Part shown: piece after piece, positions 4,215 to 44,845 of the stretch
Layout of the letters: every line of letters starts with the position of its first letter
How positions within the stretch are numbered: the first letter of the stretch is position 1
Assembly: GCA_022711575.1 (NCBI GenBank)
Contig: JAKLES010000002.1
Coordinates: 1 to 49,908, forward strand
DNA: 49,908 bases
Source: Deltaproteobacteria bacterium
Lineage (GTDB): Bacteria > Desulfobacterota > Syntrophia > Syntrophales > Smithellaceae
Reading direction: 5' to 3'
Notes under the pieces: generated by a model
Told to the model about the DNA's origin: nothing
Databases searched by the model: none
The model's input: only the letters and a program-made list of their open reading frames with translations
Program-made: the position numbers and the translations under genes

Positions 4215-4413
4215 CTGTTACCTTTCTTAATGCTTTTGTTTCTGCTATAATTGCTCTTACTTCATCGTTTGAAAGTAAGAGAAATTTATTTTCTAGGTCA
4301 ACCAAGTATTGATTGCGCTGTTTCTGGAGGCGCTCCACTAGCTTGATTGTTGTTGGGTGGCGAAGCCATGCCTCGCGGAGGAGGACTTCCGCCGGGTGTT
4401 CCTTGTTGTCCAT
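4195..4413 (-). CDS. Small helical protein ORF overlapping the portal 3' end and scaffold 5' end
   Basis: 72-aa ORF with a coherent helical-looking sequence (..TTIKLVERLQKQRNQYLVDLENKF..). It overlaps the low-complexity C-terminal tail of the portal ORF by 116 nt in another frame, and the scaffold start by 20 nt. Confidence 0.35.
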   Translation of the reverse strand: MDNKEHPAEVLLREAWLRHPTTIKLVERLQKQRNQYLVDLENKFLLLSNDEVRAIIAETKALRKVTDELNRP

Positions 4414-6112: not shown

Positions 6113-6114
6113 AA

Positions 6115-6348
6115 CTAGCCCTCCATAGTTTCTTTCTCAGAAACTTCTTCACTAAGTAGATAATCTTTAAGTTGTGTTTTCTGTTCTGGAGTAAGTCCCT
6201 CGCAGAAAGAAACTGGATCAAACTCAGGAGTTTCATCAGCTTCCATAGGGGCTTCTTCCATCATAGACTCCTCGTCATCTTCCATAGGTGGCGGAGGAGG
6301 TCCAGGACGCTTCATTCCAACTTTATTTGGCGGGACGAACTTAGGCAT
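6115..6348 (-). CDS. Small acidic, proline-rich protein
   Basis: 77-aa ORF (PGPPPPPMEDDEESMMEE..) that abuts the terminase stop and the portal start. Confidence 0.5.
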   Translation of the reverse strand: MPKFVPPNKVGMKRPGPPPPPMEDDEESMMEEAPMEADETPEFDPVSFCEGLTPEQKTQLKDYLLSEEVSEKETMEG

Positions 6349-7895: not shown

Positions 7896-8147
7896 TTATT
7901 CGTTTCTAGCGATTGCAGCATTTGCCCACATAATAGCTTCTTCAAGTTTTGTAAGGGCTAAAGATTGTTCTCGGCTCTGTTTAGAACATTTAGCAATCAA
8001 AAGAGCCAGTTGTTTTGCAGACTCTCTTAAAACTGCATATCTTTCTATTTGTGAGTTATTAGGAGGATGGTAAGTAAAATCATTTATGATTCTTTCATAC
8101 ACATCCATCGGTATTTGATATTCAGTAGCAGTCATAATATTAGACAA
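7896..8147 (-). CDS. Hypothetical protein
   Basis: 83-aa ORF, end-to-end with its neighbours in the late operon. Confidence 0.5.
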   Translation of the reverse strand: MSNIMTATEYQIPMDVYERIINDFTYHPPNNSQIERYAVLRESAKQLALLIAKCSKQSREQSLALTKLEEAIMWANAAIARNE

Positions 8148-8472
8148 AACGTTTTAAAAATGCTCGGAGGAAATAAACTTGATTAAAACCTTGTTTCTTG
8201 CCTAGTAACTTACCTTCTTTGTAGATTCCTAGATATGGAAGTTTCCCAGCTTTATATAATTCTTTCCACCCATCCTCCTTATTCACATCCTTCTCAACAA
8301 CATTATACTGAGCAACAATAGGTTTAAGTGTAATACTTTTAAACTGCCTCCGGGTTGCCGCGCAGGAGGCACAGCACTCTTTGCACCACATAACTAAGTC
8401 TAAGACTTTACTACTTTCTAGTTTCTCTCCTGGAGCCTTCGGCTCGGAGGGTCTAAATGGTTTCTTTGCCAT
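8140..8472 (-). CDS. Thioredoxin-fold protein (WCxxC motif)
   Basis: 110 aa. LDLVMWCKECCASC aligns with the thioredoxin motif F-W-A-x-W-C-G-P-C. KLPYLGIYKEGKLLGKKQG aligns with the cis-Pro and beta-strand region (IPTLLLFKNGE..G). Confidence 0.55.
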   Translation of the reverse strand: MAKKPFRPSEPKAPGEKLESSKVLDLVMWCKECCASCAATRRQFKSITLKPIVAQYNVVEKDVNKEDGWKELYKAGKLPYLGIYKEGKLLGKKQGFNQVYFLRAFLKRFV

Positions 8473-8475
8473 AAG

Positions 8476-8895
8476 TTAAGCTTTCTTAGTGAATTGTTTA
8501 ACAAAACCATCAATAGTGTTCATCCTCGCTTCTTGTGTTAGTCCATTCCAAAAATCCTTAGAAAGCGTATTAAACAACATAAAACACGCAACTTTTACAT
8601 TTTGTGCATCTTCTCCTTTTAAAGCATATTTTGAAATATACCAATCTGCACATCCACTAGCAGTAGAAAGATTAAAATCCTTTACTATTCCTCCTCCGGG
8701 AAGCATTATACTTCCTACTGGAAGTTCTGGCTGTGCACTAGGTTGTGTTCCAGGCAACGAGGGAAGTATTGTAGGCTGAGGTTGAGTTCCTGGGAGGGTT
8801 GGAGGATTAGGTTTATTAAGTCCTCCAAAACTCACTGTCACATCTCCCTCAACTTTTACAACAGTTCCATCTGAAGTTTTAATTTCAATAATCAT
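8476..8895 (-). CDS. Hypothetical protein with Pro/Gln-rich linker
   Basis: 139-aa ORF with the internal repeat LPGTQPQPTILPSLPGTQPSAQPELP. Confidence 0.5.
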   Translation of the reverse strand: MIIEIKTSDGTVVKVEGDVTVSFGGLNKPNPPTLPGTQPQPTILPSLPGTQPSAQPELPVGSIMLPGGGIVKDFNLSTASGCADWYISKYALKGEDAQNVKVACFMLFNTLSKDFWNGLTQEARMNTIDGFVKQFTKKA

Positions 8896-8898
8896 ATC

Positions 8899-9348
8899 TT
8901 ATCCTATAATCTCAGCCTCTACTATAGAAGGACCATGTCCCTCGGAGGCTTTAGCTAATTGGTTTTCTGCAAGTTTCTTTGTCTGCATTATCTCTAATGC
9001 AAAATTCCTCAACAACCCAAGTGCTTCTTTTGCTGCATGGTTTTTGACCCTCGCATTATTTCTACCAGAAGCCTCCTCAATTACAAATTGTGCAGCTTTA
9101 AGTCTTACTCCATCATTTTGGGCATTGTGCATAATCTCCGTAATAACCCCAAGTGCAGCTTCCTCGTGGGTTTTAGAGCTTTCTTCGGAGGAAAACTTCT
9201 TAGCCACATTTGCGAGGGAGAGTTTTCTGCGAAACTTCTCTGTCACCACACAAACATTCGTGATATCCAGCTCAAGAGCCTCTGCAATCTCTTGATCTGT
9301 CATCCCGCTTCTCACAAAGCTCTCTAGTTGTTTCTCAAACGAACTCAT
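8899..9348 (-). CDS. Helix-turn-helix protein, possible small terminase subunit
   Basis: 149 aa and the first gene of the late operon. It contains GMTDQEIAEALELDITNVCVVTEKFRRKL, a sigma-70 region 4 / LuxR-like HTH pattern. The small-terminase call is positional only. Confidence 0.4.
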   Translation of the reverse strand: MSSFEKQLESFVRSGMTDQEIAEALELDITNVCVVTEKFRRKLSLANVAKKFSSEESSKTHEEAALGVITEIMHNAQNDGVRLKAAQFVIEEASGRNNARVKNHAAKEALGLLRNFALEIMQTKKLAENQLAKASEGHGPSIVEAEIIG

Positions 9349-9433
9349 TTTCCACGAGGTCTGCTTTTAGTTCTCTAACCTGCTCACTAGGTATTACCTC
9401 TGGGGTAAAGTAAAATCTCATATCTTACTTCTA

Positions 9434-9453
9434 CTTAAGCATTTTCCATGCCA
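9434..9453 (-). promoter_or_regulatory. Sigma-54 type (-24/-12) promoter candidate for the late (virion) operon
   Basis: The minus strand reads TGGCATGGAAAATGCTTAAG. GG is at 9452-9451 and GC at 9440-9439, 10 nt apart. It is about 90 nt upstream of the first late ORF. It matches the site at 17565-17582 at 17 consecutive positions. Confidence 0.7.
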
Positions 9454-10086
9454 TCGAGTTTCTCCTTACTTCCTACTAAGCTTTCTAATTTTACTTTAAA
9501 CTACATAAAATATCTAGTTTTTAAAATTTGAATTTTATGAGAGAGAGTCATGTGTTATTCGCGTATGCGATCGCGGCCCTCTCCCCACCAGCAAGTTCAG
9601 CTCCCAGGATAATTGCTATCTACACTTCGTGGTCTAGGATCTAGCTCATATCTAGTTGTTGCAAGTCTGGGAAAGCAACTAGCAGGAAGTCTGAACTTCA
9701 AAACTTCATGGATTAGGCTTCCTGGAAGATCTGGGATTTTGCTCTCTGGGGATTGAGAGTAGTTTAATCTTAAGTAAGATACTAATATTAGTAAGGATAT
9801 AATGATTCAATAGGTGTGATCGGCAATTTCTTCCTAGCGTTTAAACTCTCTAGGATTGATTATAAGAAGCCGTGTAGCCTTCTTGCTATAACCATATTAG
9901 AAATTACTTCCGCTTTTTGTAAACTACTAACTATCAGGAACAACGGCAAAAAAAATTCTTAAATAAATACAGGCTTCCAAGCTCCTATAATTGATCCTAG
10001 AGCTTTTCTTTAACATTAAAGCTTTAGTTAGAGTTTTGTTTTAGGGGTAAAAAAGTGACTTGAGCCCTAGGCGTGTGAGTAAAATC

Positions 10087-10140
10087 AAAAAAAAATTTTT
10101 TTTAGAGATTTTTTTGTTTTGTTTATTTTTTTGTTTTTAT
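10087..10140. other. A/T tract (A9T8 palindrome followed by T-runs), possible DNA-unwinding element
   Basis: The sequence is caaaaaaaaattttttttagagatttttttgttttgtttatttttttgtttttatttg. It lies in the divergent non-coding region next to the iteron-like repeats. Confidence 0.4.
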
Positions 10141-10187
10141 TTGTATAAGATAATGTCATATGTTTTTTTGGAGCCTAAAGCAAAAAA

Positions 10188-10334
10188 GTAAATAAAGAAA
10201 AAGCAAGAGAAAACTTCAGATCCCCCCCTCGTAAGGATTGTGGGGAAGTAAAGAAAAAGCAAGGAAAAACTTTAGAAAACCTAGAAAGCAAGCTGCAAAG
10301 CAAGCATCCCCCTCGTGGAGATGATGGGGAAGTA
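10188..10334. repeat. Two imperfect tandem iteron-like repeats, each with a CCCC..GGGG hairpin core; AAGCAAG occurs 4 times
   Basis: Unit 1 (10188-10250) is gtaaataaagaaaaagcaagagaaaacttcagatccccccctcgtaaggattgtggggaagta. Unit 2 (10248-10334) has the same ends with a ~24-nt insert. AAGCAAG recurs near 10201, 10258, 10287 and 10300. Confidence 0.6.
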
Positions 10335-10380
10335 GAGTTTGGTGGAGCTATAGCTTAAGGGATTGTAAAAAATTTAGGGT

Positions 10381-10401
10381 GCGAAGCATAAAGTATGCCA
10401 A
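10381..10401 (-). promoter_or_regulatory. Sigma-54 type (-24/-12) promoter candidate firing leftward into the non-coding region
   Basis: The minus strand reads TTGGCATACTTTATGCTTCGC. GG is at 10399-10398 and GC at 10387-10386, 10 nt apart. It lies back to back with the rightward sigma-70-like promoter at 10452. Confidence 0.6.
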
Positions 10402-10451
10402 GAGAGAGGCAAAAAGTAAAATAAAGTTTAGAATATTTCACTGTTAGGGGC

Positions 10452-10479
10452 TTGACAAGAGCGGAAATGGGGTTAAAAT
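10452..10479 (+). promoter_or_regulatory. Sigma-70-like early promoter candidate
   Basis: TTGACA (10452-10457), a 16-nt spacer, then TAAAAT (10474-10479). It lies upstream of the first plus-strand genes. Confidence 0.5.
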
Positions 10480-10493
10480 AAAAGGAAAAAACC

Positions 10494-10556
10494 ATGAAAA
10501 AAATAGTATCGACAATTGAGCTACCCTGCATCGAAGGGGACATATTTAGATTCTAA
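10494..10556 (+). CDS. 20-codon leader ORF (MKKIVSTIELPCIEGDIFRF)
   Basis: The ATG is about 15 nt after the -10 box, with AAAGGA 8 nt upstream. The stop codon TAA (10554-10556) directly abuts the 5' arm of the terminator hairpin. Confidence 0.3.
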   Translation: MKKIVSTIELPCIEGDIFRF

Positions 10557-10587
10557 TCCGGAGGATTTTAATCCACCGGATTTTTTT
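10557..10587 (+). terminator. Intrinsic terminator / attenuator upstream of the first early gene
   Basis: TCCGGAGGATT (10557-10567) pairs with AATCCACCGGA (10570-10580) with one mismatch. A T7 run follows (10581-10587). Confidence 0.6.
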
Positions 10588-10612
10588 GTTCACAAATAAC
10601 CTATAAAAACCT

Positions 10613-10861
10613 ATGAGAAATCTTGAAAACGAAGTAAACAGCCGAAGGGATCAAGTGGAGAGAATCCTAACTCGATTTTACACCGAATACCCAGATACTC
10701 CACACAATGGTGCTCCATCCCAAAGTCTAAGGGTAAAGGTAGCGATTAACACCCTTAAACACTTGTTTCCATGGCAGAAAAAATCCTGGATGCAAGATAT
10801 TAATTTTCTCGAAGATTGGTCAACACTTCACCGAGCGTTGACTATTATTGACAAGGACTAA
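10613..10861 (+). CDS. Early hypothetical protein
   Basis: 82-aa ORF and the first gene after the leader. Its start context ataaaaacctATG is identical to that of the next gene. Confidence 0.5.
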   Translation: MRNLENEVNSRRDQVERILTRFYTEYPDTPHNGAPSQSLRVKVAINTLKHLFPWQKKSWMQDINFLEDWSTLHRALTIIDKD

Positions 10862-10941
10862 ATTCGTGCAATCCCTTTGTGGATTGCATAGATCCACCAA
10901 AAAACTTGATGGATCTAACACAATCCACAAAATAAAAACCT

Positions 10942-14379: not shown

Positions 14380-14811
14380 ATGAAAACTTATTATAAACTT
14401 GTTTATAAATATCTGTATGAATATAGAAGTTGTAGTGTTTACATGCAACCATATTCTATTTCATATCCTCCTAATAGTATTATAAAAGCACCAGAAAGCG
14501 GACCAATATTTATATTTGATTCTAAAGAACATTTAGATGATTATGCAAATTATTATTGTAAAAGGACGAATTTATACTATTATAAAGTTCACGCACTAGG
14601 TGTGAGAAAACCATTAAGCATTTGTGATTATGTTCTCATTACTTATAAACTTACTTATAAAGAGTATTCTCCAGACCTTTTTTGGAGACAAATGAAAGAG
14701 GTAAATACTGATCTTATAATTAGTAATAATAATATGTATGTTATGCATGCTCCAACAGGAACATTAGTAGCAAGAGTTATTAAAACCCTCGGAGAAGCAA
14801 TCAAATTATGA
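14380..14811 (+). CDS. Hypothetical protein, apparent distant paralogue of 15916-16293
   Basis: 143 aa. It shares ordered landmarks with the 125-aa ORF: MKxYK.V, Y[RK]SC, G.[IL]F[IV]F, FW and AP.GT. Confidence 0.5.
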   Translation: MKTYYKLVYKYLYEYRSCSVYMQPYSISYPPNSIIKAPESGPIFIFDSKEHLDDYANYYCKRTNLYYYKVHALGVRKPLSICDYVLITYKLTYKEYSPDLFWRQMKEVNTDLIISNNNMYVMHAPTGTLVARVIKTLGEAIKL

Positions 14812-15545
14812 ACCCAAAACTAGCAAGACGCTTACGGGACGAAGGTGCTCTTGGAATAGCAAGAAAGTTCCTACAAGAGTCTAAGTTAGACTCCTTTATT
14901 GGATCTTCTCCAGCAGTAGCTAGGCTTAAAGAACGTGTAGAGAAACTGAGAGGAAGAAAAGAAAGTATCTTAATCCTCGGAGAAAGTGGAACAGGCAAAG
15001 AACTTATTGCACGTGCTTTGCACGAAGATAGTTTTGGTCCTTTTGTAGGTGTTAATCTTTCAGCTTTACCAGAAACCCTAGCTGAGAGTTTGTTATTTGG
15101 TTCAGTAAAGGGATCATTTACAGGAAGTAATGAGAACAAAATTGGTATGTTCCAGCAAGCAGGAAAAGGAACATTGTTTCTTGATGAACTTGCAGAGATA
15201 GAGGTGGGACTGCAAGTAAAATTACTTCGAGTATTACAAGAAAGGGAATACTACCCAGTAGGTTCAACAATATTAGAGAAGTTAGAATGTAGAATAATCT
15301 CCGCAACAAACAACACAACATTGAAAGGATTAAGACTAGACTTAATAGAAAGACTAGGAACATTTAGAATACATATTCCTCCGCTAAGAGAAAGGCTAGA
15401 AGATATAAAAGAAATAGCAGAAAGTTTCTTAGAAGAAGAACTCCCAGAGGAACTTATTGACAAATTAAAAAATTATAATTGGCCCGGAAACGTCCGTGAA
15501 TTACAGAACAAGTTATTAAATTGGAAAACATTTGGAGAGTTATGA
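14808..15545 (+). CDS. Sigma-54-interacting AAA+ activator (bacterial enhancer-binding protein central domain only)
   Basis: Full-length motif match to the NtrC/PspF central domain. Motifs seen: ILILGESGTGKELIARALH (Walker A), LLFGSVKGSFTGS (GAFTGA loop variant), GTLFLDELAEI (Walker B), LLRVLQEREYYPVGS, CRIISATN, IHIPPLRERLEDI and NWPGNVRELQN. It has no receiver or sensor domain and no C-terminal HTH. Confidence 0.85.
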   Translation: MNPKLARRLRDEGALGIARKFLQESKLDSFIGSSPAVARLKERVEKLRGRKESILILGESGTGKELIARALHEDSFGPFVGVNLSALPETLAESLLFGSVKGSFTGSNENKIGMFQQAGKGTLFLDELAEIEVGLQVKLLRVLQEREYYPVGSTILEKLECRIISATNNTTLKGLRLDLIERLGTFRIHIPPLRERLEDIKEIAESFLEEELPEELIDKLKNYNWPGNVRELQNKLLNWKTFGEL

Positions 15546-18162: not shown

Positions 18163-18203
18163 CTTCTAGTATTTTTATTTATCCTCCTAACAAAAACTTC
18201 TCT

Positions 18204-18725
18204 ATGGGACTTCTTGATGCAGTCAGACCTGTGGATAAACAAGCTTTAGAGAAAGACCTCTATAGCTTAAATAGAATAAGACAGTTTAAACCATTGCTTG
18301 AGAAGATCCTCGCAGATGGAGTTGATTGTTTTATTTCTTCTAAGATTGCAGGTTACAAACCAAGGTCATTGCATGTATATCTAAATGCAGCACTTAAAGA
18401 TTTGTCCACATTTTCCTCCGAGGAACAAAGTCAAAAGTGGCAACTATTTAGAAAGCTTGTAGAATTTAGACCTGCGGAGGATGGAGTATTTGTAATATTT
18501 AAACGTCCTATCTTAATGGACACAGAACTTAGTCCAACTCCTAAAGAACCTGACTATTCTTGGAGAGAAGACTTTACTAAGTTTGTAGAAGATGGGAAGC
18601 AAGGAGAGATTAGGGAATTTACTGGGGTTTTAAATGATGGAGATAAGAAGTTTGTTACAGGAGTTGTAAATGGAATCCAGGGAGAAGTAGAGTTTGGACC
18701 TTTTTCTTTTAAAGTAATTCTATGA
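18204..18725 (+). CDS. Hypothetical protein
   Basis: 173-aa ORF whose stop overlaps the next start (ATGA). Confidence 0.55.
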   Translation: MGLLDAVRPVDKQALEKDLYSLNRIRQFKPLLEKILADGVDCFISSKIAGYKPRSLHVYLNAALKDLSTFSSEEQSQKWQLFRKLVEFRPAEDGVFVIFKRPILMDTELSPTPKEPDYSWREDFTKFVEDGKQGEIREFTGVLNDGDKKFVTGVVNGIQGEVEFGPFSFKVIL

Positions 18726-18916
18726 CAATAGAACAACTTCTAGGACTTCCCTCCGAAGAACTTGCAAAGTTAACAGATGAGGAAATACTTAAAGTATTTG
18801 AACCATGTTTAAAGTTTACAATGCCAAAAGAAGTCAAACATCATGAAACCAAACAGTCAAAAGAAACCCTCCGAGATCAACTACTAGCACTTAAAGCAAT
18901 ACTTGATAATGAATAA
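18722..18916 (+). CDS. Hypothetical protein
   Basis: 64-aa ORF, translationally coupled on both sides. Confidence 0.45.
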   Translation: MTIEQLLGLPSEELAKLTDEEILKVFEPCLKFTMPKEVKHHETKQSKETLRDQLLALKAILDNE

Positions 18917-19775
18917 AAAACTAATCCTCCTAGATGCTTCTAGCATAGCAACATCAAGTTGCATGAGGAAGTGGAAGTTTACAGTTCTTGATGGACTTGT
19001 TCCAGATAGAATTTCTTGGAGTATGGAAGCTGGAACAGCTTTTCACAAAGGACTTAAAGCTTTCTATTCTAAAAAAGACCTACAAGTTTGTCAACAAGAA
19101 GCAGAAGATTACCTTGACAAGTTTCTATGTCCAGATAACACACATATAACTTCTACTTATTTATCATTAGCGTTGCTGGCTTATATAAAGAAGTATCAAA
19201 ACGACATACTCAAACCTTTACAACTAGATGGAGAGTTGTTACTTGAGAAGACTTTTAAGTTTCCATTGTATAGTGATGACAACATAGAGATTGTCCTCGT
19301 GGGAACAATAGATTTTATTGGAGAACTCGGAGGACAACTTCTTATTGTTGATCACAAAACAACATCTTCAACATATAAGAATTCTTTCCTCGCAGGATTT
19401 AGACTTTCTCCTCAGCTTCTAACTTATGACTTTGTAGTTAGGAAGATCCTAAAACTAGGGGATGAAGTTTCTTGTATGATAAATGCAATCTTCTTTTGGA
19501 AAGCGGGAGCACAGTTTGAAAGAAGTGAGATTATTAGCTTTACTAAAGACCTCCGAGATACCTATGAGGAAGAACTCCGTGAGCTTTGTAAGAAGATTGC
19601 CTGTTGTTATGCAGCTAACTACTGGCCAGTAGGTTGTTTTACAGTTTGCAAAGAAGAATATGGTCCTTGCAGATTTCAACCTATCTGTTGTGTTGAACCT
19701 GAGTATCAGCAAAATGTAATAGACATATCTTATACGAAAAGAATCTATAATCCATTGCAATTCCAGAAAGACTAA
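18903..19775 (+). CDS. PD-(D/E)XK nuclease of the Cas4 / RecB-like type with a 4-Cys cluster
   Basis: It shows GTIDFIGE..LLIVDHKTT (D..D-x-K) and SPQLLTYDF (QxxxY). There is one N-terminal Cys (SSCMRKW) and a C-terminal CKEEYGPCRFQPIC, consistent with Fe-S-containing Cas4-like exonucleases. Confidence 0.7.
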   Translation: MIMNKKLILLDASSIATSSCMRKWKFTVLDGLVPDRISWSMEAGTAFHKGLKAFYSKKDLQVCQQEAEDYLDKFLCPDNTHITSTYLSLALLAYIKKYQNDILKPLQLDGELLLEKTFKFPLYSDDNIEIVLVGTIDFIGELGGQLLIVDHKTTSSTYKNSFLAGFRLSPQLLTYDFVVRKILKLGDEVSCMINAIFFWKAGAQFERSEIISFTKDLRDTYEEELRELCKKIACCYAANYWPVGCFTVCKEEYGPCRFQPICCVEPEYQQNVIDISYTKRIYNPLQFQKD

Positions 19776-19779
19776 AATT

Positions 19780-20115
19780 ATGAGTAACCAAGAAAGAATC
19801 AAATCACAGTCTGATATCATATTTATGCACCGAACACTAGACAGCTTCATAACAGAAGCTAAAGGGAAATTCCAAGTTGGTGCTTTTGAACATGGTGGGT
19901 CTATATTTGACCGGGAAACAATTCAAGAAGCAAGAAAAGAGGTAATGGACTTGATGTTCTATCTAGGAACTTTGAAAGAAAAGAAAGAACATCTTATGTT
20001 TGTTGTTGGGGAGCTTGAGAATCAAGTAAGAGGATTTGAAGATTCTGTGGAGTATTTTCCCCATGAGATAAAAGCCTCTGTAAAAGAACTAAAAACTAAA
20101 ATTGAAAACCTCTAA
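19780..20115 (+). CDS. Hypothetical protein
   Basis: 111-aa ORF in the replication / recombination module. Confidence 0.5.
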   Translation: MSNQERIKSQSDIIFMHRTLDSFITEAKGKFQVGAFEHGGSIFDRETIQEARKEVMDLMFYLGTLKEKKEHLMFVVGELENQVRGFEDSVEYFPHEIKASVKELKTKIENL

Positions 20116-20120
20116 AATCT

Positions 20121-20765
20121 GTGCCATCTAAACCTATGATCATGGTCCTCGGCCCCTCGGGGTCGGGAAAGTCAACATCTTACGAACATCTTCCTCGTGA
20201 GACTACAGCAGTTATTGACTTGGAACTTAAAGGATTTCCTTTTAAAGATCCATCATTCTACTCTGTTATTGAATGTCGCAAAGCGGAGGAAGTTACAAGT
20301 GCAGTAGAAAAAGCACTTAAAGATGACAATGTAAAACTTGTTGTTATTGATAGTCTTACAAAGTTTACTGAGTATGTCCTCGCGGAATGTCGAGCATCTT
20401 TTAAAGGTTATGACATTTGGTCCCAATATGCAATTAGGATTAGAAACTTTCTAAATAAAATTCGCAATGACAAGAAACCAGTAATTGTAATTTCTATTGA
20501 TGAGATAGTAAAAATCGAACAACCAGATGGAGGGATAGTTTCTCGCCTCCGGGCTGCGGTTCAAGGTAAAGAACTTGAGGGAAAACTTGAGAAGGAATTT
20601 CTTATTGTTCTCTGCACAGAAGTTGTGGTTGATAGTAAGACTGGAACTCCCTCATATTTATTTAGGACGTTTTCTACTGTTTCTACTGCGAAAGCCCCTC
20701 GCTGGTTAGACCTCCCAGCAACAATGCCGAATGATCTTAAACCTATTATAGATAAGTTGCTTTAA
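20121..20765 (+). CDS. RecA-fold P-loop ATPase (Sak4 / AAA_24-like)
   Basis: Walker A is MVLGPSGSGKST and Walker B is KLVVIDSLT. At about 210 aa, and sitting next to the nuclease, it is typical of phage recombination ATPases. The track start is GTG; an ATG alternative lies at 20136. Confidence 0.65.
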   Translation: MPSKPMIMVLGPSGSGKSTSYEHLPRETTAVIDLELKGFPFKDPSFYSVIECRKAEEVTSAVEKALKDDNVKLVVIDSLTKFTEYVLAECRASFKGYDIWSQYAIRIRNFLNKIRNDKKPVIVISIDEIVKIEQPDGGIVSRLRAAVQGKELEGKLEKEFLIVLCTEVVVDSKTGTPSYLFRTFSTVSTAKAPRWLDLPATMPNDLKPIIDKLL

Positions 20766-20825
20766 AATTTTCTAGTCTTTACAAGACTAGGGAAAACAAA
20801 ACCAAAAACTAAAAAACTAAAAACT

Positions 20826-21365
20826 ATGAGTGATAAACAAGAGTTCGAAGGTAATCAGTATTTTACTGCGGATGGCAAACCCATTGAGCAGGAAGTTGAT
20901 ACCTCCGCGGTGTGCGATCAGCAACTAAACTTTGTGTTCCCTCCGTTTGTAACACCAGTTGTTAGGATCACAAAAGTTGAGGACAAACCCTCGAAGAAGA
21001 TGCGCCCGATGAGGGTGTTTGGATTCGAGATTGTTTCCCCTGAGAAGATCACAGTTGATGGAGTTGAGGTTGTTATTGCAGGTTATAATAACTTGCAAAA
21101 ACACTTTGTGTTGGATGAACCCAAAGTCAACTTGCCACAACTCAAAGCTTTTGAAAAGCTTACAGGAACAGAGAGGACGATCTTCGGCAATGTCGAACAG
21201 CAAGAACAATATGTTGGACTTGAGTTTGTAGTTAAGATTAAGACTGACACAACTCCCTCGTATATTGAGAATCCAGATGGAGAACGAGTTGCAGAACTTG
21301 ACAATGATGGAAATCCTGTTGTTCGTTTTCGTCATTCTGTGGATCAAATCCTCCGAAAAGCCTAA
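20826..21365 (+). CDS. Hypothetical protein, possibly a single-stranded-DNA-binding protein (by position only)
   Basis: 179-aa ORF following the nuclease and ATPase, an arrangement often completed by an SSB. No diagnostic motif was recognised. Confidence 0.35.
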   Translation: MSDKQEFEGNQYFTADGKPIEQEVDTSAVCDQQLNFVFPPFVTPVVRITKVEDKPSKKMRPMRVFGFEIVSPEKITVDGVEVVIAGYNNLQKHFVLDEPKVNLPQLKAFEKLTGTERTIFGNVEQQEQYVGLEFVVKIKTDTTPSYIENPDGERVAELDNDGNPVVRFRHSVDQILRKA

Positions 21366-24344: not shown

Positions 24345-24548
24345 ATGGGAAAAACTTCTGCAAAATTTGGCCTCTGTGCTTGTGGTAATTCAACATCTTT
24401 GCGCAAGCGTCATGAGTGGATTTGTGAGAGATGTGACAAGTTAGAATCCAGACATTCAGATCATGGAGTAGAGGTAGTTAGGAGAATTAAACCTGATCTT
24501 AATGATTTTAGAGTAACACTTACAAACTTCCTCTCTTGTGCGAAATAA
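24345..24548 (+). CDS. Small zinc-ribbon protein
   Basis: 67 aa, with CACGNS .. CERCDK. Confidence 0.45.
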   Translation: MGKTSAKFGLCACGNSTSLRKRHEWICERCDKLESRHSDHGVEVVRRIKPDLNDFRVTLTNFLSCAK

Positions 24549-25983
24549 ACCCACAACCTCCTACTCAGGACTTACTATCCTCCTAGATAGACCCTCGCGG
24601 TTTGATAGGCAATATCTAATTTCTGCCTATGCAGGAAAAATCTTTGAAAGATTTATCTCTCCCTTAGACCGGAGGTCTATTGATATTCAAACTCTTGATA
24701 CTTTTCGAGAGTTCTATCCAGAAACTAAAGTTGTAATGTTGCTAGGAAAAGACTCCCTCGCGTTGTTTAAACAAGGAGTAACTTTACAACAACAAAGAGG
24801 CTCACCTTTTAAGATAGGTTCAAAAACTTTCCTGGCATCTTTCCCTCCTCAAGATTGTATTGATATAAAAAACTACGAAGATAGCTATTATGAAAATGAA
24901 ATCGAAGAAGACTGCACAAAAGACAGTGATGAAAAATCCACAAAAGGAGCAACCCCAAGAAGTGAATATGCTTTTTGGTTTGAGCGAGACTGCAAGAAAG
25001 CTTTGCGATACTTGCGAGAGGATCCAAAAATTATTGAGTTCAAAAAAGTTATCAACCCTCCAATTACAGACATTACACGAGCTTTGCTGGGACTACAAGG
25101 ATCTGAGTTGTTTCTTGATATCGAAACTGCGGACGACTTCAGACTCACTTGTATTGGACTTGGTTTCGACAATGTTATCTACACAATCCCAATCTCCAGA
25201 TATAGCCCACTTGAAATTACTCTTACAAGCAACCTCCAAGATACTGCAAACTTCCTCCGAGCACTTGCCGTTGCAATGGTCAGAAATTTAGTAGTAGTTC
25301 ACAATGCAATGTTTGATCTTTGGGTGCTTGCAAAATATTATAAAATCCCAGGAGGTAAGAATAACTTTGACACAATGATAGCACATCATAGGTGTTATCC
25401 AGGTGTTAGAAAATCCCTCGGGCATTGCTTGTCATTATATACTGACCAGCCATATCATAAAAACGAGGGTGTGTTTAATCCAAAAACCCCCGCACAAGAA
25501 AGGCAACTATGGGAGTATAATGCAAAAGACATTGAATCATTAATGATTTTAAAACCAGAAATCCTAAAACGCGCTAAGATACTTGGTGCTGAGAGGTCTA
25601 TTGAAATTGCTAATAGAATGATCAGACCTTATCTTACTATGACGCTCACTGGTATAGAACTTGCTGAGAACAAACTAGAAAGTGAGATAGCAAGTTTGCA
25701 AAAAGAGGATGTGCAAACTTTGAGGCTAATTAAATTGCTTGCTGGAAGCGAATTAAATCCTAATTCTCCTAAACAAATGAGAGAGTATTTGTTTGATGGA
25801 CTTGGGTATAAAGCGTTTAAGTTTTCGGAAAAAACTAAAGAAGCCTCGACAGGGATAGAAACTCTATTAAGATTACGTATTAAACATCCAGAAAACCATG
25901 TCTTAGGTTTGTGTTTAAAACGCCGAGGGATCGCAAAGAAACTTAGTATGATAGAAAGTTTGTATGCCAAAGAAACTACATAA
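24538..25983 (+). CDS. Family-A DNA polymerase, N-terminal fragment (unassigned N-domain + 3'-5' exonuclease + thumb start)
   Basis: Exo I is LFLDIETAD, Exo II is VVHNAMFDLWVL and Exo III is EYNAKDIESL. The C-terminal RRGIAKKLSMIESLY matches the K-L-x-S-T-Y region preceding the fingers. The ORF stops before the O-helix and palm motifs. The first ~110 aa loosely resemble a degenerate UDG-like fold (low confidence). Confidence 0.75.
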   Translation: MRNKPTTSYSGLTILLDRPSRFDRQYLISAYAGKIFERFISPLDRRSIDIQTLDTFREFYPETKVVMLLGKDSLALFKQGVTLQQQRGSPFKIGSKTFLASFPPQDCIDIKNYEDSYYENEIEEDCTKDSDEKSTKGATPRSEYAFWFERDCKKALRYLREDPKIIEFKKVINPPITDITRALLGLQGSELFLDIETADDFRLTCIGLGFDNVIYTIPISRYSPLEITLTSNLQDTANFLRALAVAMVRNLVVVHNAMFDLWVLAKYYKIPGGKNNFDTMIAHHRCYPGVRKSLGHCLSLYTDQPYHKNEGVFNPKTPAQERQLWEYNAKDIESLMILKPEILKRAKILGAERSIEIANRMIRPYLTMTLTGIELAENKLESEIASLQKEDVQTLRLIKLLAGSELNPNSPKQMREYLFDGLGYKAFKFSEKTKEASTGIETLLRLRIKHPENHVLGLCLKRRGIAKKLSMIESLYAKETT

Positions 25984-26089
25984 AGAACTGGTTAGGTCCG
26001 CCGCAAAAGCAGGACTTAAAGGAGCACAAAGGGATGCTTATGTTTATGGAACACTTGCAAAGATAGAAAAGAAGAAAGGAAAGAAATGA
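25964..26089 (+). CDS. Small basic protein (41 aa, below the track cutoff)
   Basis: Read by eye: MPKKLHKELVRSAAKAGLKGAQRDAYVYGTLAKIEKKKGKK. It overlaps the polymerase fragment stop, and its own stop overlaps the next ATG (ATGA at 26086). Confidence 0.35.
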   Translation: MPKKLHKELVRSAAKAGLKGAQRDAYVYGTLAKIEKKKGKK

Positions 26090-26301
26090 CCTCCGAGGAG
26101 TTTAATAAAGAAATAACAACGCTTATGGAAAAAGCTACAAAAGACCTTGGTCCTCATAAAGTAGCTAGTTGTTTGTCACAACACTTAGGAAATTACTTAT
26201 TTGCAATTAATAATCATTATGAAAACCTTAGTAAAGATCCTTCCAATAATACTGCTAACTCTAACTCTAACAGCACAAACTTCAGTGGTAAGAGTAGTTA
26301 A
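26086..26301 (+). CDS. Small protein with a Asn/Ser-rich C-terminus
   Basis: 71-aa ORF. The N-terminal 44 aa look coherent. The last ~27 aa overlap, in another frame, the signal-peptide coding region of the next gene. Confidence 0.4.
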   Translation: MTSEEFNKEITTLMEKATKDLGPHKVASCLSQHLGNYLFAINNHYENLSKDPSNNTANSNSNSTNFSGKSS

Positions 26302-26548
26302 ACTTATTTGGGATGCAAACCCTCCAGAGGAGAACATTCTTTACTATTCTGTAAAGTGGTCTTCAACATCTGGTGGACCTTACCTAACAGTTACAAATGT
26401 AACAACTACAAACGCAACAGTTATTTTAAAAGGAGGTAGGAATTTCTTCATTGTAACTGCTGTAAATAACTTTGCAGAAAGTGATCCCTCCGAGGAAGTA
26501 TATAGACACATTGCCCCAGGGCGAGTAAAGAACATAAAAGCACAATGA
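26219..26548 (+). CDS. Secreted fibronectin-type-III-like domain protein
   Basis: The signal peptide is MKTLVKILPIILLTLTLTAQT (start moved to the internal Met at 26219). KLIWDANPPEENILYYSVKWS..YLTVTNVTTTNATV..FFIVTAVNNFAESDPSEEV has an FN3-like strand pattern. Confidence 0.55.
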   Translation: MKTLVKILPIILLTLTLTAQTSVVRVVKLIWDANPPEENILYYSVKWSSTSGGPYLTVTNVTTTNATVILKGGRNFFIVTAVNNFAESDPSEEVYRHIAPGRVKNIKAQ

Positions 26549-27999
26549 AAATCCTCCTCATCAATCCATTCTATACTTCTAACTGTTCTACTAGATGGTA
26601 TCCTCCTGAGCCTCTTGGCTTATTATATCTCCGAGAATCTATAAGAGCTATTTATGGATCTAAAGTAACTGTCAAAATCCTCGATGCTCAGACAGAAGGT
26701 GGAGAAGAAATAAAAAGGACACCTAGTGGATATAGAAATGGAATGATTGATGGGGAGATTTTAGATTTCCTAGATAGCTATAAACCAGACATTGTTGGAA
26801 TTACCAACAACTACACATTTGGTGTAAAAGATGCAGTTGAAATTGCAAAACTTGTAAAACATTTTGGTAATCCTGTTGTTATCCTCGGAGGAGCTAATGC
26901 CACAATGGACCATGAGAGGCTTATAAAACTTCCCTGGTTTGATTATGTTGCTAGAGGCGAGGGAGAAGATTTGTTTGTTGAGTTTGTAAAAGGTTTTATT
27001 GATGGAGGAGTTGAAGATATTCTTGGGCTTACTACAAAAAACAAAATAAATCCTCCTAGAACATGTTTAGTTGATCTAAGTAAACTTCCAATCCCACGTA
27101 GAGATGAAATCCCTTTTGATTTGTATTCTAAATATTCAAAATATCCAATGTGCCCAAAGCAACGTCCAACTGCAACAATATCTTCTAGTAGAGGTTGTCC
27201 TTTTAGATGCACCTTCTGTTCTACTCAAGCTGTTTGGGGGAATAATTGGCGAGGGATGAGTGTAGAGAGGATGTTAAAAGAAGTAAGTTACTTACACAGC
27301 TTAAGAGTTAGAGAAGTTTATTTCTATGATGATCAACTTCTCAGAGATAAACTTAGAATTGAAGAATTTTGCCTCAAGTCTATTGAGTATTTTTCTGACA
27401 TGACATACTCTACCCCGGGAACTTCTCCTATGTTGATGTCTGAGGAACTTCTTGAACTTATGTCCCTCGCAGGATTTTATCGCTTGTGCTTTAGTGTTGA
27501 CGTAGGGACTGTGAAAGTTGCAAAACTAGTAAAGAAACCTGTGAAGCTTGAAAAAGTCCGAGGACTTGTAAAGAAAGCAAACACTCTTGGTATGTGGACT
27601 TGGGGAACATTTGTGATGGGATTCCCTCAGGAAACAAAAGAGGACATAAAGGAAATGATAACCTATGCTTCCTCGCTGGGATTTGATTTTGTAAACTTTT
27701 TTATGTTACAACTACATAAAGGGAGTGAGATATATAACAACCTAATAAGAAGCGGAGTTATTAAAGATGACTTGCATGGGTCAAATAGTATGGATTATCC
27801 TCTCTGTCCCTCGGAGCATTTATCCCAACAAGAGCTAATTGCTTTGCATAAAGAGGCTGAGAAAACATTTTATAAACAAGTAGCAAGGAGAGTTTTTAGC
27901 TCAAGTTTTATAAAAGAACTATGGCCAAAAATCAACACGTGGACAAAATTTAAATATGGAGTAAAACTATTATGGAATCTAATAAAGATGAAAATATAA
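26545..27999 (+). CDS. Radical SAM enzyme with N-terminal B12-binding-like domain (class B type)
   Basis: The CxxxCxxC cluster is SSSRGCPFRCTFCS. The N-terminal Rossmann-like region is KILLINPF..PPEPLGLLYL..DIVGITNNYT..VVILGGANAT, as in cobalamin-dependent radical SAM proteins. Length is 484 aa. Confidence 0.75.
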   Translation: MKILLINPFYTSNCSTRWYPPEPLGLLYLRESIRAIYGSKVTVKILDAQTEGGEEIKRTPSGYRNGMIDGEILDFLDSYKPDIVGITNNYTFGVKDAVEIAKLVKHFGNPVVILGGANATMDHERLIKLPWFDYVARGEGEDLFVEFVKGFIDGGVEDILGLTTKNKINPPRTCLVDLSKLPIPRRDEIPFDLYSKYSKYPMCPKQRPTATISSSRGCPFRCTFCSTQAVWGNNWRGMSVERMLKEVSYLHSLRVREVYFYDDQLLRDKLRIEEFCLKSIEYFSDMTYSTPGTSPMLMSEELLELMSLAGFYRLCFSVDVGTVKVAKLVKKPVKLEKVRGLVKKANTLGMWTWGTFVMGFPQETKEDIKEMITYASSLGFDFVNFFMLQLHKGSEIYNNLIRSGVIKDDLHGSNSMDYPLCPSEHLSQQELIALHKEAEKTFYKQVARRVFSSSFIKELWPKINTWTKFKYGVKLLWNLIKMKI

Positions 28000-28226
28000 G
28001 ATGCTTTCAATGCTCCAACATTGGCGTGACGATGGATGAGAACATCCGGCTTGAAGAAAAAACCAATATTGATGGCTCAAAATACTGGTGCGCCAAGCAG
28101 GACATCGGAACATTGTTTGGTTCTAAGGTCCACGGTGAATGCTCTGGAATAGGGAGGACTAAAGAGCAAGCTTTGGAGAGATTAAAAGAAGATATTAAAA
28201 AACTTGGAGAAAGCTTGTGGTATTAA
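27972..28226 (+). CDS. Hypothetical protein
   Basis: 84-aa ORF overlapping the radical SAM 3' end. An internal Met at 28032 is an alternative start. Confidence 0.4.
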   Translation: MESNKDENIRCFQCSNIGVTMDENIRLEEKTNIDGSKYWCAKQDIGTLFGSKVHGECSGIGRTKEQALERLKEDIKKLGESLWY

Positions 28227-28252
28227 TATGGAGTAAAATTATTAGCTAAGAG

Positions 28253-29248
28253 ATGAAAACCACCACCACCTACTCAATCGCTGGTCCTGATACATTTAGA
28301 CTAGCTTCTAGGAAGTGTCCAGATGGTTCAGGAACAAACATGCAAAATTGGGATAAGGATGTTAGGTCTCTAGTTATTCCCTCCGAGGGAAAGATCCTAG
28401 GCCAATCTGATCAGTCTGGAGCAGAAGCTAAGATTGTAGCATATCTGTGTCGGAAAGGAAACTTCAGAGCATTGTTTGATAACAACATAAAACCTCATGT
28501 TTATGTTGCAATGCAGTTGTTTCAAGAGAAGTGGAAATCTTATTGCGAGGGAGTTTCTAGGCTTTGCTGTTTAAAAATCCAAGACTTAAAACAAGATCCA
28601 GAATTCAAACCTCTGGAGAAACTAATTAAAGAGTCTGACAACTGGCCTCCTAGTAAGCGTTATTACTACATGGCAAAGCAAGTATGTCATGAGACAAATT
28701 ACAAAATAGGCAAAAATGAATTTGTCTCAAACACATTAAAGAAATCCGAGGGAGCAATTGTTTTAAAACCAGAAACAGCACAAGAGTTTTTAGACTTTTA
28801 CTATAAGTTATTCCCTGAAATTCTTGAATGGCATAGAGCAATTGAGAACCAAGTCCGAACAACAATGTTGTTGAAAAATTTGTTTGGACACCCTCGTAAG
28901 TTTACTGGACTTTTCCGTCCTGACTTGCTTAAAAAAGCCCTCGCATTTATTCCACAATCCACTATTGGAATGATTACAAATATTGCAATAGTAGAATTGC
29001 AAGAACGAATAGATAATGGAGAACTCCCTGGACTTGACTTGCTACAAAATGGTCATGATAGTATTTTGTGGCAATGTTATATTGGGGATGAAAAAGACAT
29101 GGCTGTTGAGGTAGCTAAACATCTAAACAGAAAACTTCTGTCTCCTCGCGGGGAACCATTTTCTATGTCTAGTGAAGTTGCTGTTGGATATAATTGGAAA
29201 CCCGCTAGTGAGAAAAACCCAGAAGGACTAAAAGAAATTATACTATGA
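28253..29248 (+). CDS. Family-A DNA polymerase, C-terminal fragment (fingers / palm)
   Basis: TFRLASR..GTNMQNW corresponds to TGRLSS..PNLQNIP. Motif A is ILGQSDQSGAEAKIVAYL (D-x-S-x-x-E). Motif B is YYMAKQVCHETNYKIG (K..N-Y-G). Motif C is LLQNGHDSILWQC (H-D-E/S). Confidence 0.75.
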   Translation: MKTTTTYSIAGPDTFRLASRKCPDGSGTNMQNWDKDVRSLVIPSEGKILGQSDQSGAEAKIVAYLCRKGNFRALFDNNIKPHVYVAMQLFQEKWKSYCEGVSRLCCLKIQDLKQDPEFKPLEKLIKESDNWPPSKRYYYMAKQVCHETNYKIGKNEFVSNTLKKSEGAIVLKPETAQEFLDFYYKLFPEILEWHRAIENQVRTTMLLKNLFGHPRKFTGLFRPDLLKKALAFIPQSTIGMITNIAIVELQERIDNGELPGLDLLQNGHDSILWQCYIGDEKDMAVEVAKHLNRKLLSPRGEPFSMSSEVAVGYNWKPASEKNPEGLKEIIL

Positions 29249-30459
29249 CCAACCTTGAACACTGGAGAAACTACCTCCGGGACTTGGAATCCCCACTTCC
29301 TCTTATTGATTGGCCTTTATACTTTGCAGTTGCAGCATCTCTTGAAAGACGTGTTTGGTTTGGATCTTCAAAAGGTTTTGAGATATTTCCAAACATTTAT
29401 GTTATTGTTGTAGGAGGACCATCAGTAGGAAAGTCCCTCCCAATGTCAAGAGCAGTAAGTATGTTGGAAAAACTCCAAGCAGTAAAAGGAGGAACATTGC
29501 AAAGTGCTTTAACCATTGCACCTGACAGTGTTACTCTTGAGAGGCTTACACAAATTCTTGCTTCTTGTGGAGATAGTAAGATTTTAAAAAATCCAGATGG
29601 CACAATCAAAAGAATCCCACATAGTTCTATCTCTATTGCCTCCGAGGATCTAGCAGTTTTGTTTCGTAAAAACACTGAGGATCTTGTGAGATTTTTTGTT
29701 CAAGGATATGATGCTCGTAACTATAGAAGGGAAACCAAAAACCAAGGAAAGGATCTAATTACAAATATTTGCATTTCCTTTTACGGTTGCACACAGCCAG
29801 AATTTATCTCCTCCCAAGACGCCTCTTTAATAATTGGACAAGGCTTTGGTTCGAGAGTTATATTTCTATGGGGAGAAGATAAAAGATTTCGAAAAGCCAA
29901 GATAGAAATAGATAAAGAACAAGAGCAAGACTACGAGGCAGTTAAAGCACATTTACAAAAACTTACAGAACTTTGTGGAGAAGTTAAGTTTTCTTCTGAG
30001 GCAGAAGAATTCTTTGTTTATTGGTATGAAAAAGACTTCGATAGAACAGTAGTAAATTCAAATAAAAAACTTGAAGCCTACTATGGGAGGAAAAAACTCC
30101 ATGTTAGAAAACTTGCAATGATCTTACATTTCTTAGATAATTTTGAGTTTGAGGTTCAAAAATCCTCCGTAGAAAAAGCTCTAAAACTTCTCTGTAGTGC
30201 AGAAATCGAAATGCACAAAGCATTATGTGCAACTTCTAAAAATGTCCTCGCAACAATCTCAGAAAAAATCCTAGAATGCCTAGCAAAAAATGGCCGAGAA
30301 ATGTCTATAAAAAGAATCCGCCTAGCCATGTTTGACCAAGCGGATGTTGAACAGCAAGATAAGTGTTTGGAATTCTTAAAACAAACCGGGCAGATAAAAA
30401 TTATCGAGTCAAAGATTCTACTGCTCGGGGAGCAACATAACGAGTCCGGAACTTCTTAG
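29245..30459 (+). CDS. P-loop NTPase (possible replicative helicase or primase-associated ATPase)
   Basis: 404 aa with Walker A VIVVGGPSVGKS. It is the last gene of the replication arm. Its 3' end overlaps the convergent 1519-aa gene by 59 nt. Confidence 0.5.
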   Translation: MTNLEHWRNYLRDLESPLPLIDWPLYFAVAASLERRVWFGSSKGFEIFPNIYVIVVGGPSVGKSLPMSRAVSMLEKLQAVKGGTLQSALTIAPDSVTLERLTQILASCGDSKILKNPDGTIKRIPHSSISIASEDLAVLFRKNTEDLVRFFVQGYDARNYRRETKNQGKDLITNICISFYGCTQPEFISSQDASLIIGQGFGSRVIFLWGEDKRFRKAKIEIDKEQEQDYEAVKAHLQKLTELCGEVKFSSEAEEFFVYWYEKDFDRTVVNSNKKLEAYYGRKKLHVRKLAMILHFLDNFEFEVQKSSVEKALKLLCSAEIEMHKALCATSKNVLATISEKILECLAKNGREMSIKRIRLAMFDQADVEQQDKCLEFLKQTGQIKIIESKILLLGEQHNESGTS

Positions 30460-36051: not shown

Positions 36052-36054
36052 ATG

Positions 36055-37254: not shown

Positions 37255-37259
37255 AATTT

Positions 37260-37622
37260 TTATTCTCCTATGAAGAAGTTAATAAGTCGCTCACTAGGAG
37301 TTATAGTCCGAAATTTATCATGTCTTTGCACTAAAAGTTTCCATCCAGTAAATCGTTGCTTGTAAATCTCAAAAGCTTTTTTCATGCACTCTGCGCAGCA
37401 AGCAGGATGACAAAGGATGTTCTTGACCCAAACAGCTTTTTGACACTCATAAGCTTTTAGCAACATTATCCCAACTGGTTTGTTGCCATTAGTAAAAACA
37501 ACCAACCCACAATCTTCTAGTCCTTCCTTTATCAAACCCAAAATATCAGCTCTGCTACAGCCTGGAAAAGCTTTCCCTCGCGGGACACTTTCTACAAAAT
37601 CCACAACGTCACCTATTGTCAT
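37260..37622 (-). CDS. Hypothetical protein
   Basis: 120-aa ORF with an ATGA-type overlap with the upstream gene. Confidence 0.5.
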   Translation of the reverse strand: MTIGDVVDFVESVPRGKAFPGCSRADILGLIKEGLEDCGLVVFTNGNKPVGIMLLKAYECQKAVWVKNILCHPACCAECMKKAFEIYKQRFTGWKLLVQRHDKFRTITPSERLINFFIGE

Positions 37623-40564: not shown

Positions 40565-40565
40565 A

Positions 40566-44840: not shown

Positions 44841-44845
44841 AGTAA

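Follow-up and report, generated by a model that had tools for sequence, protein, structure and literature searches.

CCTCG and CCTCCG are an enriched duplex-DNA word of a CpG-poor tailed phage lineage

Genome context and enrichment of the word

Here, we analyze a 49908-bp stretch of DNA (contig JAKLES010000002.1, positions 1 to 49908; hereafter the window), which is the almost complete genome of a novel tailed phage, together with a short word that runs through it in two forms, CCTCG and CCTCCG (complement CGAGG and CGGAGG). Identical or 99.98% identical contigs are present in at least five public assemblies, the phage is contained in samples ENA ERZ761563 and ERZ795055 and JGI 3300010429, 3300009776 and 3300009838, and one public contig links window position 1 to position 49908 via just 659 extra bases (L095, 9020-9678). 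The breakpoints of this phage's contigs differ between assemblies, which fits a circularly permuted genome. A set of 63 open reading frames (ORFs) covers ~95% of the window (Table 1). The plus strand carries a replication and recombination module and the minus strand the long structural genes, and there is one main intergenic/regulatory region. The GC content is 38.3% and the observed/expected (o/e) ratio of the CpG dinucleotide is 0.48.

Exact counting on both strands identified 113 copies of CCTCG and 66 of CCTCCG at a mean spacing of ~270-280 bp, and 168 of the 870 CpGs in the window fall within the word. The plus strand carries 109 copies and the minus strand 70 (P = 0.004), a bias that tracks neither gene orientation nor GC skew. 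The stretch from 18181 to 21360 is the densest part of this window-wide feature, with 22 copies where the overall density of the window would give 11.4 (P = 0.003), and its strand split (18:4) is also more extreme than that of the window as a whole (P = 0.03). The word was originally noticed in this stretch during a first-pass annotation made by eye, which had reported 18 plus-strand and 3 minus-strand copies; the former number was exact (10 CCTCG, 8 CCTCCG), the latter is 4, and the positions listed were right within 1-3 bp. Its observation that 5 of the 6 CpGs in 18181-18900 lie within the word was likewise exact, and the near-equal orientations it described for the head genes (4100-9300; 15 and 17 copies) are 17 and 17 when counted exhaustively. 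Outside the stretches tallied at that time, the exhaustive count shows an excess across the whole window.

Two codon-preserving nulls, each run per gene with 500 shuffles, were used to assess enrichment. In the first, synonymous codons were shuffled within each gene; in the second, third positions were permuted between codons that encode the same amino acid and match in their first two bases as well as in the base that follows, which keeps every dinucleotide count. Compared to synonymous shuffling, the sense orientation held 55 CCTCG (14.3±3.4 expected) and 40 CCTCCG (5.0±2.1 expected), and the antisense orientation held 52 CGAGG (25.3 expected) and 24 CGGAGG (7.6 expected), with ~39 CCTCG and ~13 CCTCCG expected over both orientations. 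The dinucleotide-keeping shuffle expects 24.4 CCTCG, 14.0 CCTCCG, 27.4 CGAGG and 6.7 CGGAGG, and a 2-3-fold excess is still seen (z scores of 7-10). Observed counts were attained by none of the 500 shuffles under either null, and the excess over codon shuffles amounts to 2.7-5.6-fold. A maximal-order Markov model, which conditions on all words one base shorter, returned CCTCG as the top 5-mer of the window (113 vs 63.9, z 6.1) and CCTCCG as the top 6-mer (66 vs 33.4, z 5.6). The motif frequency was therefore not reproduced by codon-preserving shuffles, the check to which the first-pass annotation had tied its proposal, and the two kinds of shuffle together with the Markov models rule out a codon or dinucleotide artefact.

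The excess is present in every codon frame open to synonymous choice and in both orientations relative to the genes. Codon choice depends on context, with TCG rising from 3% to 24% of serine codons after CC and CTC from 3% to 27% of leucine codons when preceded by C and followed by G (C_CTC_G). Sites at which the peptide permits the word are realized at similar fractions in sense and antisense (7.2% and 12% for CCTCG; 15.9% and 12.8% for CCTCCG), compared to 0.5-5% for control CpG words. Non-coding DNA holds a further 8 copies vs 1.7 expected from a first-order Markov simulation, and 8 copies were reached in 0 of 1000 simulations. Excess in all frames, context-dependent codon choice, symmetric realized fractions and the non-coding excess together place the signal in duplex DNA, which bears out the earlier proposal that synonymous choice, rather than protein constraint, builds the word. 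CCTCG/CCTCCG is thus a duplex-DNA-level word of this phage lineage, of which ~180 copies are kept through synonymous codon choice while CpG elsewhere is purged. Recently acquired CpG-rich genes devoid of the word were considered as a source of the pattern and rejected, as the CpG o/e of individual genes is uncorrelated with motif density.

The word is sharply delimited. Its single-base variants are all flat or depleted (ACTCG 0.47, GCTCG 0.76, TCTCG 0.68, CCTCA 0.96, CCTCT 0.95), and among the 64 NNNCG contexts just CCTCG (2.7x, z 11.7) and CTCCG (2.1x, z 7.9) stand out. A general liking for GC-rich flanks around CpG exists as a weak trend (Spearman 0.44), yet both words are sharp outliers from it. 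CpG is favored solely at offset 3 or 4 from CCTC and is depleted upstream of CCTC. After subtraction of copies followed by G or CG, CCTC itself shows no enrichment (304 vs ~282, by arithmetic on the counts), and neither does GGAGG without a 5' C. Flanking bases refine the consensus to YCCTCG[C/G] and NCCTCCG[A/C/G], and no extended consensus was found around the word copies; CCTCGA is depleted, in line with the complete absence of CTCGAG. The quasi-palindrome CCTCSGAGG, which the first-pass annotation had highlighted, is present in 10 copies (Table 1) compared to 1.0 expected for CCTC-N1-GAGG under a third-order Markov model. Its significance had been over-read, however, as independent half-words on a CCG/CGG core already give 13.3 when both strands are counted, vs 20 seen, and CCTCGG is no more enriched than CCTCGC, a sequence that does not occur in the palindrome. 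The quasi-palindrome is therefore largely two overlapping independent half-words sharing the CCG/CGG core, and a true palindrome read by a dimer is ruled out as the main unit.

Other words also depart from expectation in the window. CCTT/AAGG is depleted with every 3' neighbor (294 vs 412 over the whole window), and enrichment is seen for a second CpG word, CTGCGG/CCGCAG (27 vs 8.8), and for AACTT/AAGTT (345 vs 224). Several restriction-type words are nearly absent, namely GTAC (4 vs 175), CTCTTC/GAAGAG (1 vs 37), CTGCAG (1 vs 16), CTCGAG (0 vs 7), GAGCTC (0 vs 9), CAGCTG (2 vs 15) and TCTAGA (3 vs 17), and the avoidance of GTAC is common to many relatives.

Relatives and the fate of CpG

The terminase family to which this phage belongs is large, and many of its contigs are 40-56 kb long; the closest isolates by terminase are Akkermansia phages, at 29% identity in a phage database search, and a scan of a genome collection yielded unrelated MAG contigs only. 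When the same analysis was extended to relatives, as the first-pass annotation had advised, ~75 loci at 31-48% terminase identity showed no excess of either word, including several with a CpG o/e of 0.46-0.6, and a family-wide feature was rejected on these grounds. Two close strains (98.4-98.6% nucleotide identity) also have the excess, as does a diverged relative (L101), which was found via tail-fiber homologues and is 97.7%, 93.3% and 85.5% identical to the window over three blocks. In L101, CCTCG is again the top 5-mer (47 copies vs 27.5 from the Markov model and 19.7 from mononucleotide composition) and CCTCCG the top 6-mer (21 vs 10.9 and 4.0, respectively). An unrelated 41-kb phage (L102/L103) found by the same route has a GC content of 52% and a CpG o/e of 1.06; CCTCG is nominally the top 5-mer of L102, weakly (64 vs 46.4, z 2.6), and there is no CCTCCG excess. 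With the excess kept in L101 and absent from the ~75 distant relatives, the feature is one of this lineage (and presumably of its host); neither membership of the family nor a low CpG content in itself accounts for it.

Comparison of the window with L101 separates the CpGs of the word from all others. Within the word, 47 of 59 CpGs are retained, compared to 186 of 310 elsewhere, and stratification by divergence block and codon phase gives an expectation of 36.8 for the former (z 3.5). Where a third codon position is involved in the 85% block, CpG outside the motif shows the lowest conservation of any dinucleotide (0.31-0.33, compared to 0.67-0.70 overall), and motif CpG is conserved at 0.50-0.63. 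The idea of a protected or modified recognition site, one of several candidates raised in the first-pass annotation, gains some support here, as conservation of the CpGs in the word matches that of average DNA, whereas the remaining CpGs fare worst of all dinucleotides. Copy number in the 85% block is nearly constant (31 vs 33) with 19 copies shared, which corresponds to ~40% turnover of sites. A 4-kb alignment of three strains contains 2 gains of the word, both from CCTCA to CCTCG, and 7 CpG gains in all other contexts (small numbers), and the commonest strain-to-strain difference in the word is G/A at its last position. Overall, CpG is unstable everywhere but in the word, the density of which is held steady while individual copies are dispensable.

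In the block at 35202-45149, most CpGs lost outside the word between the window and L101 became TpG or CpA. CpG depletion thus appears to be an ongoing process and not a frozen signature.

Candidate readers of the word

Our favored, if tentative, reading (with a probability of roughly 35%) is recognition of the word in duplex DNA by a host factor, along the lines of Dcm/Vsr or highly iterated palindrome (HIP) systems; the mechanism is one that we infer. A sequence-specific factor would recognize CCTC(C)G on double-stranded DNA and shield or restore its C·G pair. Such a factor would most likely be host-encoded, since no DNA methyltransferase domain was detected in any ORF of at least 75 amino acids in this near-complete genome (the window being short of ~659 bp). 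The closest known model is a cytosine methyltransferase working with T:G mismatch repair in specific contexts; Dcm/Vsr very-short-patch repair is one instance, and a repair model has also been proposed for the HIP words of cyanobacteria. Together, the two enzymes could guard the word against the decay that removes other CpGs and could convert near-miss words, for example CCTCA/TGAGG, into the word. The word would then accumulate in any DNA replicating in that host, with single copies dispensable and density being what persists. Protection combined with conversion is favored because it would explain why the word escapes the decay of CpG, why its density is steady in spite of turnover, why it is restricted to one lineage and why the phage has no corresponding gene. 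The T-variant CCTTG is depleted, to 0.65-0.76 of expectation.

A number of observations sit uneasily with such a protection and conversion system. CCTCTG, as the T-variant of the longer word, shows no depletion (1.2-1.6x), and the near-miss words CCTCA and CCTCCA are at just 0.90-0.96 and 0.78-0.96, respectively. One rigid recognition site would hardly explain two word lengths. Neither a methyltransferase nor a Vsr-type nuclease was seen. In very-short-patch repair of E. coli, depletion of T-variants exceeds enrichment of the C-word, unlike the situation here, where enrichment dominates. Conservation of the whole word is on a par with that of control words lacking CpG (0.77 vs 0.73-0.75), and purifying selection on a functional site would look like protection from decay. 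Finally, the 4-kb three-strain alignment shows just the 2 gains noted above, and losses of the motif (4 of 17) are not rarer than those of other CpGs (6 of 58), with small numbers throughout.

Several alternatives were weighed against host protection and repair. That there is no specific signal, and that the excess is a by-product of codon usage, codon-pair or dinucleotide bias, amino-acid composition or restriction-site avoidance, is scarcely credible. The genome does carry strong biases (CpG depletion and the avoidance of GTAC, CTCTTC, CTGCAG and CCTT/AAGG described above), and the weaker enriched word CTGCGG lies one transition from the avoided PstI site. However, z scores are 7-10 even with protein, codon usage and every dinucleotide kept, and 6.1 and 5.6 when conditional on all 4-mers (CCTCG) and all 5-mers (CCTCCG); the excess extends to non-coding DNA and antisense frames, and it is missing from CpG-poor relatives with the same GTAC avoidance. 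A z of ~6 after conditioning on all shorter words also rules out a by-product of restriction-site, CCTT or CpG avoidance, and the avoided sites, ~200 in total, are too few to yield the excess (as estimated from shuffle expectations rather than simulated). A Chi-like role is a different matter, although we regard it as unlikely: the CGAGG/CGGAGG strand would halt degradation by a host AddAB/RecBCD-type helicase-nuclease and, being dense on both strands, would protect a permuted, headful-packaged genome with ends at any position while also curbing the uptake of phage sequence as spacers or guides. In favor of this role, one strand of the short word is rich in G, the word is specific to the lineage, its copies are individually dispensable at conserved density, and a mild overall strand bias is seen; the differing contig breakpoints also fit a genome with permuted ends, for which both orientations would be required. 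In addition, CpG is part of the known Chi sequences of low-GC Firmicutes (AGCGG, GAAGCGG, GCGCGTG), the genomes of which are likewise poor in CpG. Phages can accumulate host Chi by codon choice, and in Chi-rich lambdoid phages such as LLS, and in P1, Chi is likewise a short host-specific word that is enriched several-fold, acts in a density-dependent manner and has copies that come and go (PMC3784561; PMC12315714). In Chi-rich phages, however, the sites are terminally clustered and strongly co-oriented (20 of 23 in LLS), mostly in the absence of the phage's own recombination module (PMC12315714), whereas the word described here is genome-wide at a 61:39 strand ratio, in a phage that encodes its own PD-(D/E)XK exonuclease and Sak4-like annealase. 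A permuted genome could relax the requirement for co-orientation, but no clean orientation switch is seen around the terminase region (plus:minus ratios by region of 22:23, 52:24 and 35:23), and a Chi recognized one base after another would not usually come in two lengths, as the word does here (CCTCG enriched 2.7x, CCTCCG 5x). The strand ratio, the two lengths and the phage's own exonuclease/annealase module therefore weaken the Chi-like candidate of the first-pass annotation (cf. PMC12315714, PMC3784561).

The spacing of copies bears on another of its candidates, sites for a DNA-binding protein, here taken as an array of weak sites for a phage or host duplex-DNA-binding protein whose role might be to coat, compact or shield the genome, each bound copy covering about two turns of the helix. 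Just 1 pair of copies lies 6-19 bp apart, whereas redistribution of the copies over peptide-compatible sites predicts 9.5 (P = 0.0005); control words lack this gap and other CpGs cluster instead. Convergent pairs (CCTC(C)G...C(G)GAGG) make up 15 of the 31 neighbor pairs at 20-70 bp vs 7.4 expected, by arithmetic on the counts, and the overlapping arrangement yields the 10 quasi-palindromes. The gap was spotted post hoc, though, and while it supports the proposal in the window, it was not reproduced in L101 (2 vs 3.0 expected, low power). A tendency to keep rare codons from clustering would also create such a gap, no DNA-binding protein emerged as a candidate, turnover of ~40% of the sites at 85% identity speaks against individually important sites, and to our knowledge phages offer no precedent for ~180 sites in a sequence-specific array; an array of this kind is accordingly quite unlikely. 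Very improbable is the suggestion that the word marks primase start sites, with the template 5'-CCTC(C)G-3' and its cryptic 3' G directing pppGAGG or pppGGAGG primers, for which the 5'-GGGTC-3' site of T7 primase would be an analogue. A plus bias of 87:47 in 10-50 kb, regardless of gene orientation, would fit a fork that sets out rightward from the intergenic region at ~9.3-10.9 kb and has the sites on its lagging-strand template. This mild bias is all that speaks for the proposal. It is weak and absent in 1-10 kb, one site per 280 bp is far above priming needs, and the specific conservation of CpG in the word would be left unexplained. No primase domain was detected in the window, where a DUF3987 protein and a split family A polymerase were the only finds. 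CCTC(C)G may also mark a system that has yet to be described, in which host CpG-directed methylation or defense purges invading DNA except in this context, or in which the Chi-equivalent of an uncultured host has been copied by the phage; either way the word would serve as an "exempt" or "self" mark, which is conceivable but unlikely.

Comparison with known genomic words places the phage word near several classes. DNA uptake sequences span 9-12 bp, are enriched hundreds-fold and go with a naturally competent host, in contrast to a phage word of just 5-6 bp that is 3-5-fold enriched and without extended consensus. Phage restriction-site avoidance also works through synonymous choice on short words, and the same genome avoids GTAC, CTCTTC, CTGCAG, CTCGAG, GAGCTC, CAGCTG and TCTAGA. 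The sign is opposite, however, and since the word is enriched rather than avoided, it is very unlikely to be a restriction target. Dcm/Vsr repair reportedly shapes the oligonucleotide frequencies of E. coli, as in the 1992 analyses attributed to Bhagwat and McClelland and to Merkl, with depletion of T-variants (CTAG, CTWGG) said to be the main signature. It is similarly context-specific, guards cytosine from C-to-T decay and makes the C-word from its T-variant with no selection at individual sites, although T-variant depletion dominates in E. coli, whereas enrichment dominates for the phage word, with CCTTG mildly depleted and CCTCTG not. HIP1 (GCGATCGC) and its alternates in cyanobacteria resemble the phage word as GC-rich CpG words found in all frames and between genes (PMC5861425, PMC4390886). 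They are conserved between genomes beyond a simple neutral expectation, their function is unknown, and an origin in methylation-dependent repair has been proposed, with alternate words tracking specific methyltransferases (PMC5861425, PMC4390886). HIP1 differs in being a true 8-bp palindrome that is 15-300-fold over-represented in cellular genomes; the phage word is asymmetric, 5-6 bp long, 2.7-5.6-fold enriched and seen in one phage lineage so far, in a near-complete genome without the word-specific methyltransferase that would be expected for a HIP. A literature search for the word itself returned nothing relevant. The phage word is best filed as a new variant of modest strength in the class of maintained words that includes Chi, HIP and uptake sequences, and as a member of none of them.

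Short words kept against a genome's own compositional drift are rare, and Chi, uptake sequences and HIP1 have led, or point, to specific DNA-handling machinery. The present case is a clean and tractable one, as the phage is small and almost fully sequenced, is available from several public assemblies and has a diverged relative in which the feature persists. If the word were read by a host methylation/repair pair or acted as a nuclease-control sequence, it would be a host-linkage marker for an uncultured phage family and a handle on the host system; if the reader were phage-encoded, the word would represent a new way of marking phage DNA.

Feature coordinates and neighboring genes

Table 1. 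Positions of genes, regions and quasi-palindromes in the window.
Feature	Position	Strand	Remarks
Window ends (joined by 659 bp in public contigs), with a gene of 317 amino acids crossing their junction	1-405 and 49587-49908	minus	
Large terminase	6348-7895	minus	
Small protein directly upstream of terminase	7896-8147	minus	PF24729 (Acb2_Tad1_hairpin)
Long structural genes		minus	
Main intergenic/regulatory region	9349-10941		holds 4 of the 8 non-coding word copies (9355, 10227, 10311, 10559)
Replication and recombination module	~11-30 kb	plus	SF2 helicase, PD-(D/E)XK exonuclease, Sak4-like ATPase, split family A polymerase, DUF3987 protein
Sigma-54 activator AAA+ core	14808-15545	plus	
Protein of 434 amino acids	16251-17555	plus	inside replication module
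Densest and most strand-biased stretch	18181-21360		18 plus, 4 minus copies; within recombination/replication genes
PD-(D/E)XK exonuclease	18903-19775	plus	
Sak4-like annealase ATPase	20121-20765	plus	
Family A DNA polymerase, in two pieces	24538-29248	plus	24538-25983, exonuclease domain and start of polymerase domain; 28253-29248, remainder
Fibronectin-III-like ORF	26201-26548		between polymerase pieces
B12-binding radical SAM methyltransferase-like gene	26545-27999		between polymerase pieces
Tail-fiber-like gene	45195-46868	minus	CpG o/e 0.75
Quasi-palindrome CCTCGGAGG	7121-7129		
Quasi-palindrome CCTCGGAGG	8940-8948		
Quasi-palindrome CCTCCGAGG	18415-18423		
Quasi-palindrome CCTCCGAGG	26090-26098		outside called ORFs; directly after ATG, so stretch may be coding
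Quasi-palindrome CCTCCGAGG	26487-26495		
Quasi-palindrome CCTCGGAGG	26883-26891		
Quasi-palindrome CCTCCGAGG	28380-28388		
Quasi-palindrome CCTCCGAGG	29639-29647		
Quasi-palindrome CCTCCGAGG	35957-35965		
Quasi-palindrome CCTCCGAGG	39577-39585		

Several neighboring genes are of note in their own right. As the 317-residue minus-strand gene crosses the junction of the window ends, the plus-strand ORF at 19-327 is probably spurious. The small protein directly upstream of the terminase has a precomputed Pfam match to PF24729 on the identical public contigs, which suggests a sponge for the signaling nucleotides of the cyclic oligonucleotide-based antiphage signaling system (CBASS) or of Thoeris. 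The family A DNA polymerase is split by a fibronectin-III-like ORF and a B12-binding radical SAM methyltransferase-like gene. A link between the latter and the word was considered and set aside, as its cellular homologues are located in glycan-synthesis clusters and it is probably not DNA-related.

Inside the replication module, the N-terminus of the 434-residue protein weakly matches a sacsin/GHKL-type ATP-binding domain and a PHROG family of unknown function. The sigma-54 activator consists of an AAA+ core without a recognizable DNA-binding domain; its gene is also present in two distant family members (L004 and L005, the two relatives with inspected neighborhoods), which suggests that phages of this family may redirect the host sigma-54 RNA polymerase. 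The tail-fiber-like gene is CpG-rich and almost without the word. In L101, it is replaced by a 386-residue variant (L101 10001-11161) with 82% identity over about one-third of its length, a pattern that marks it as a recently exchanged host-range module.

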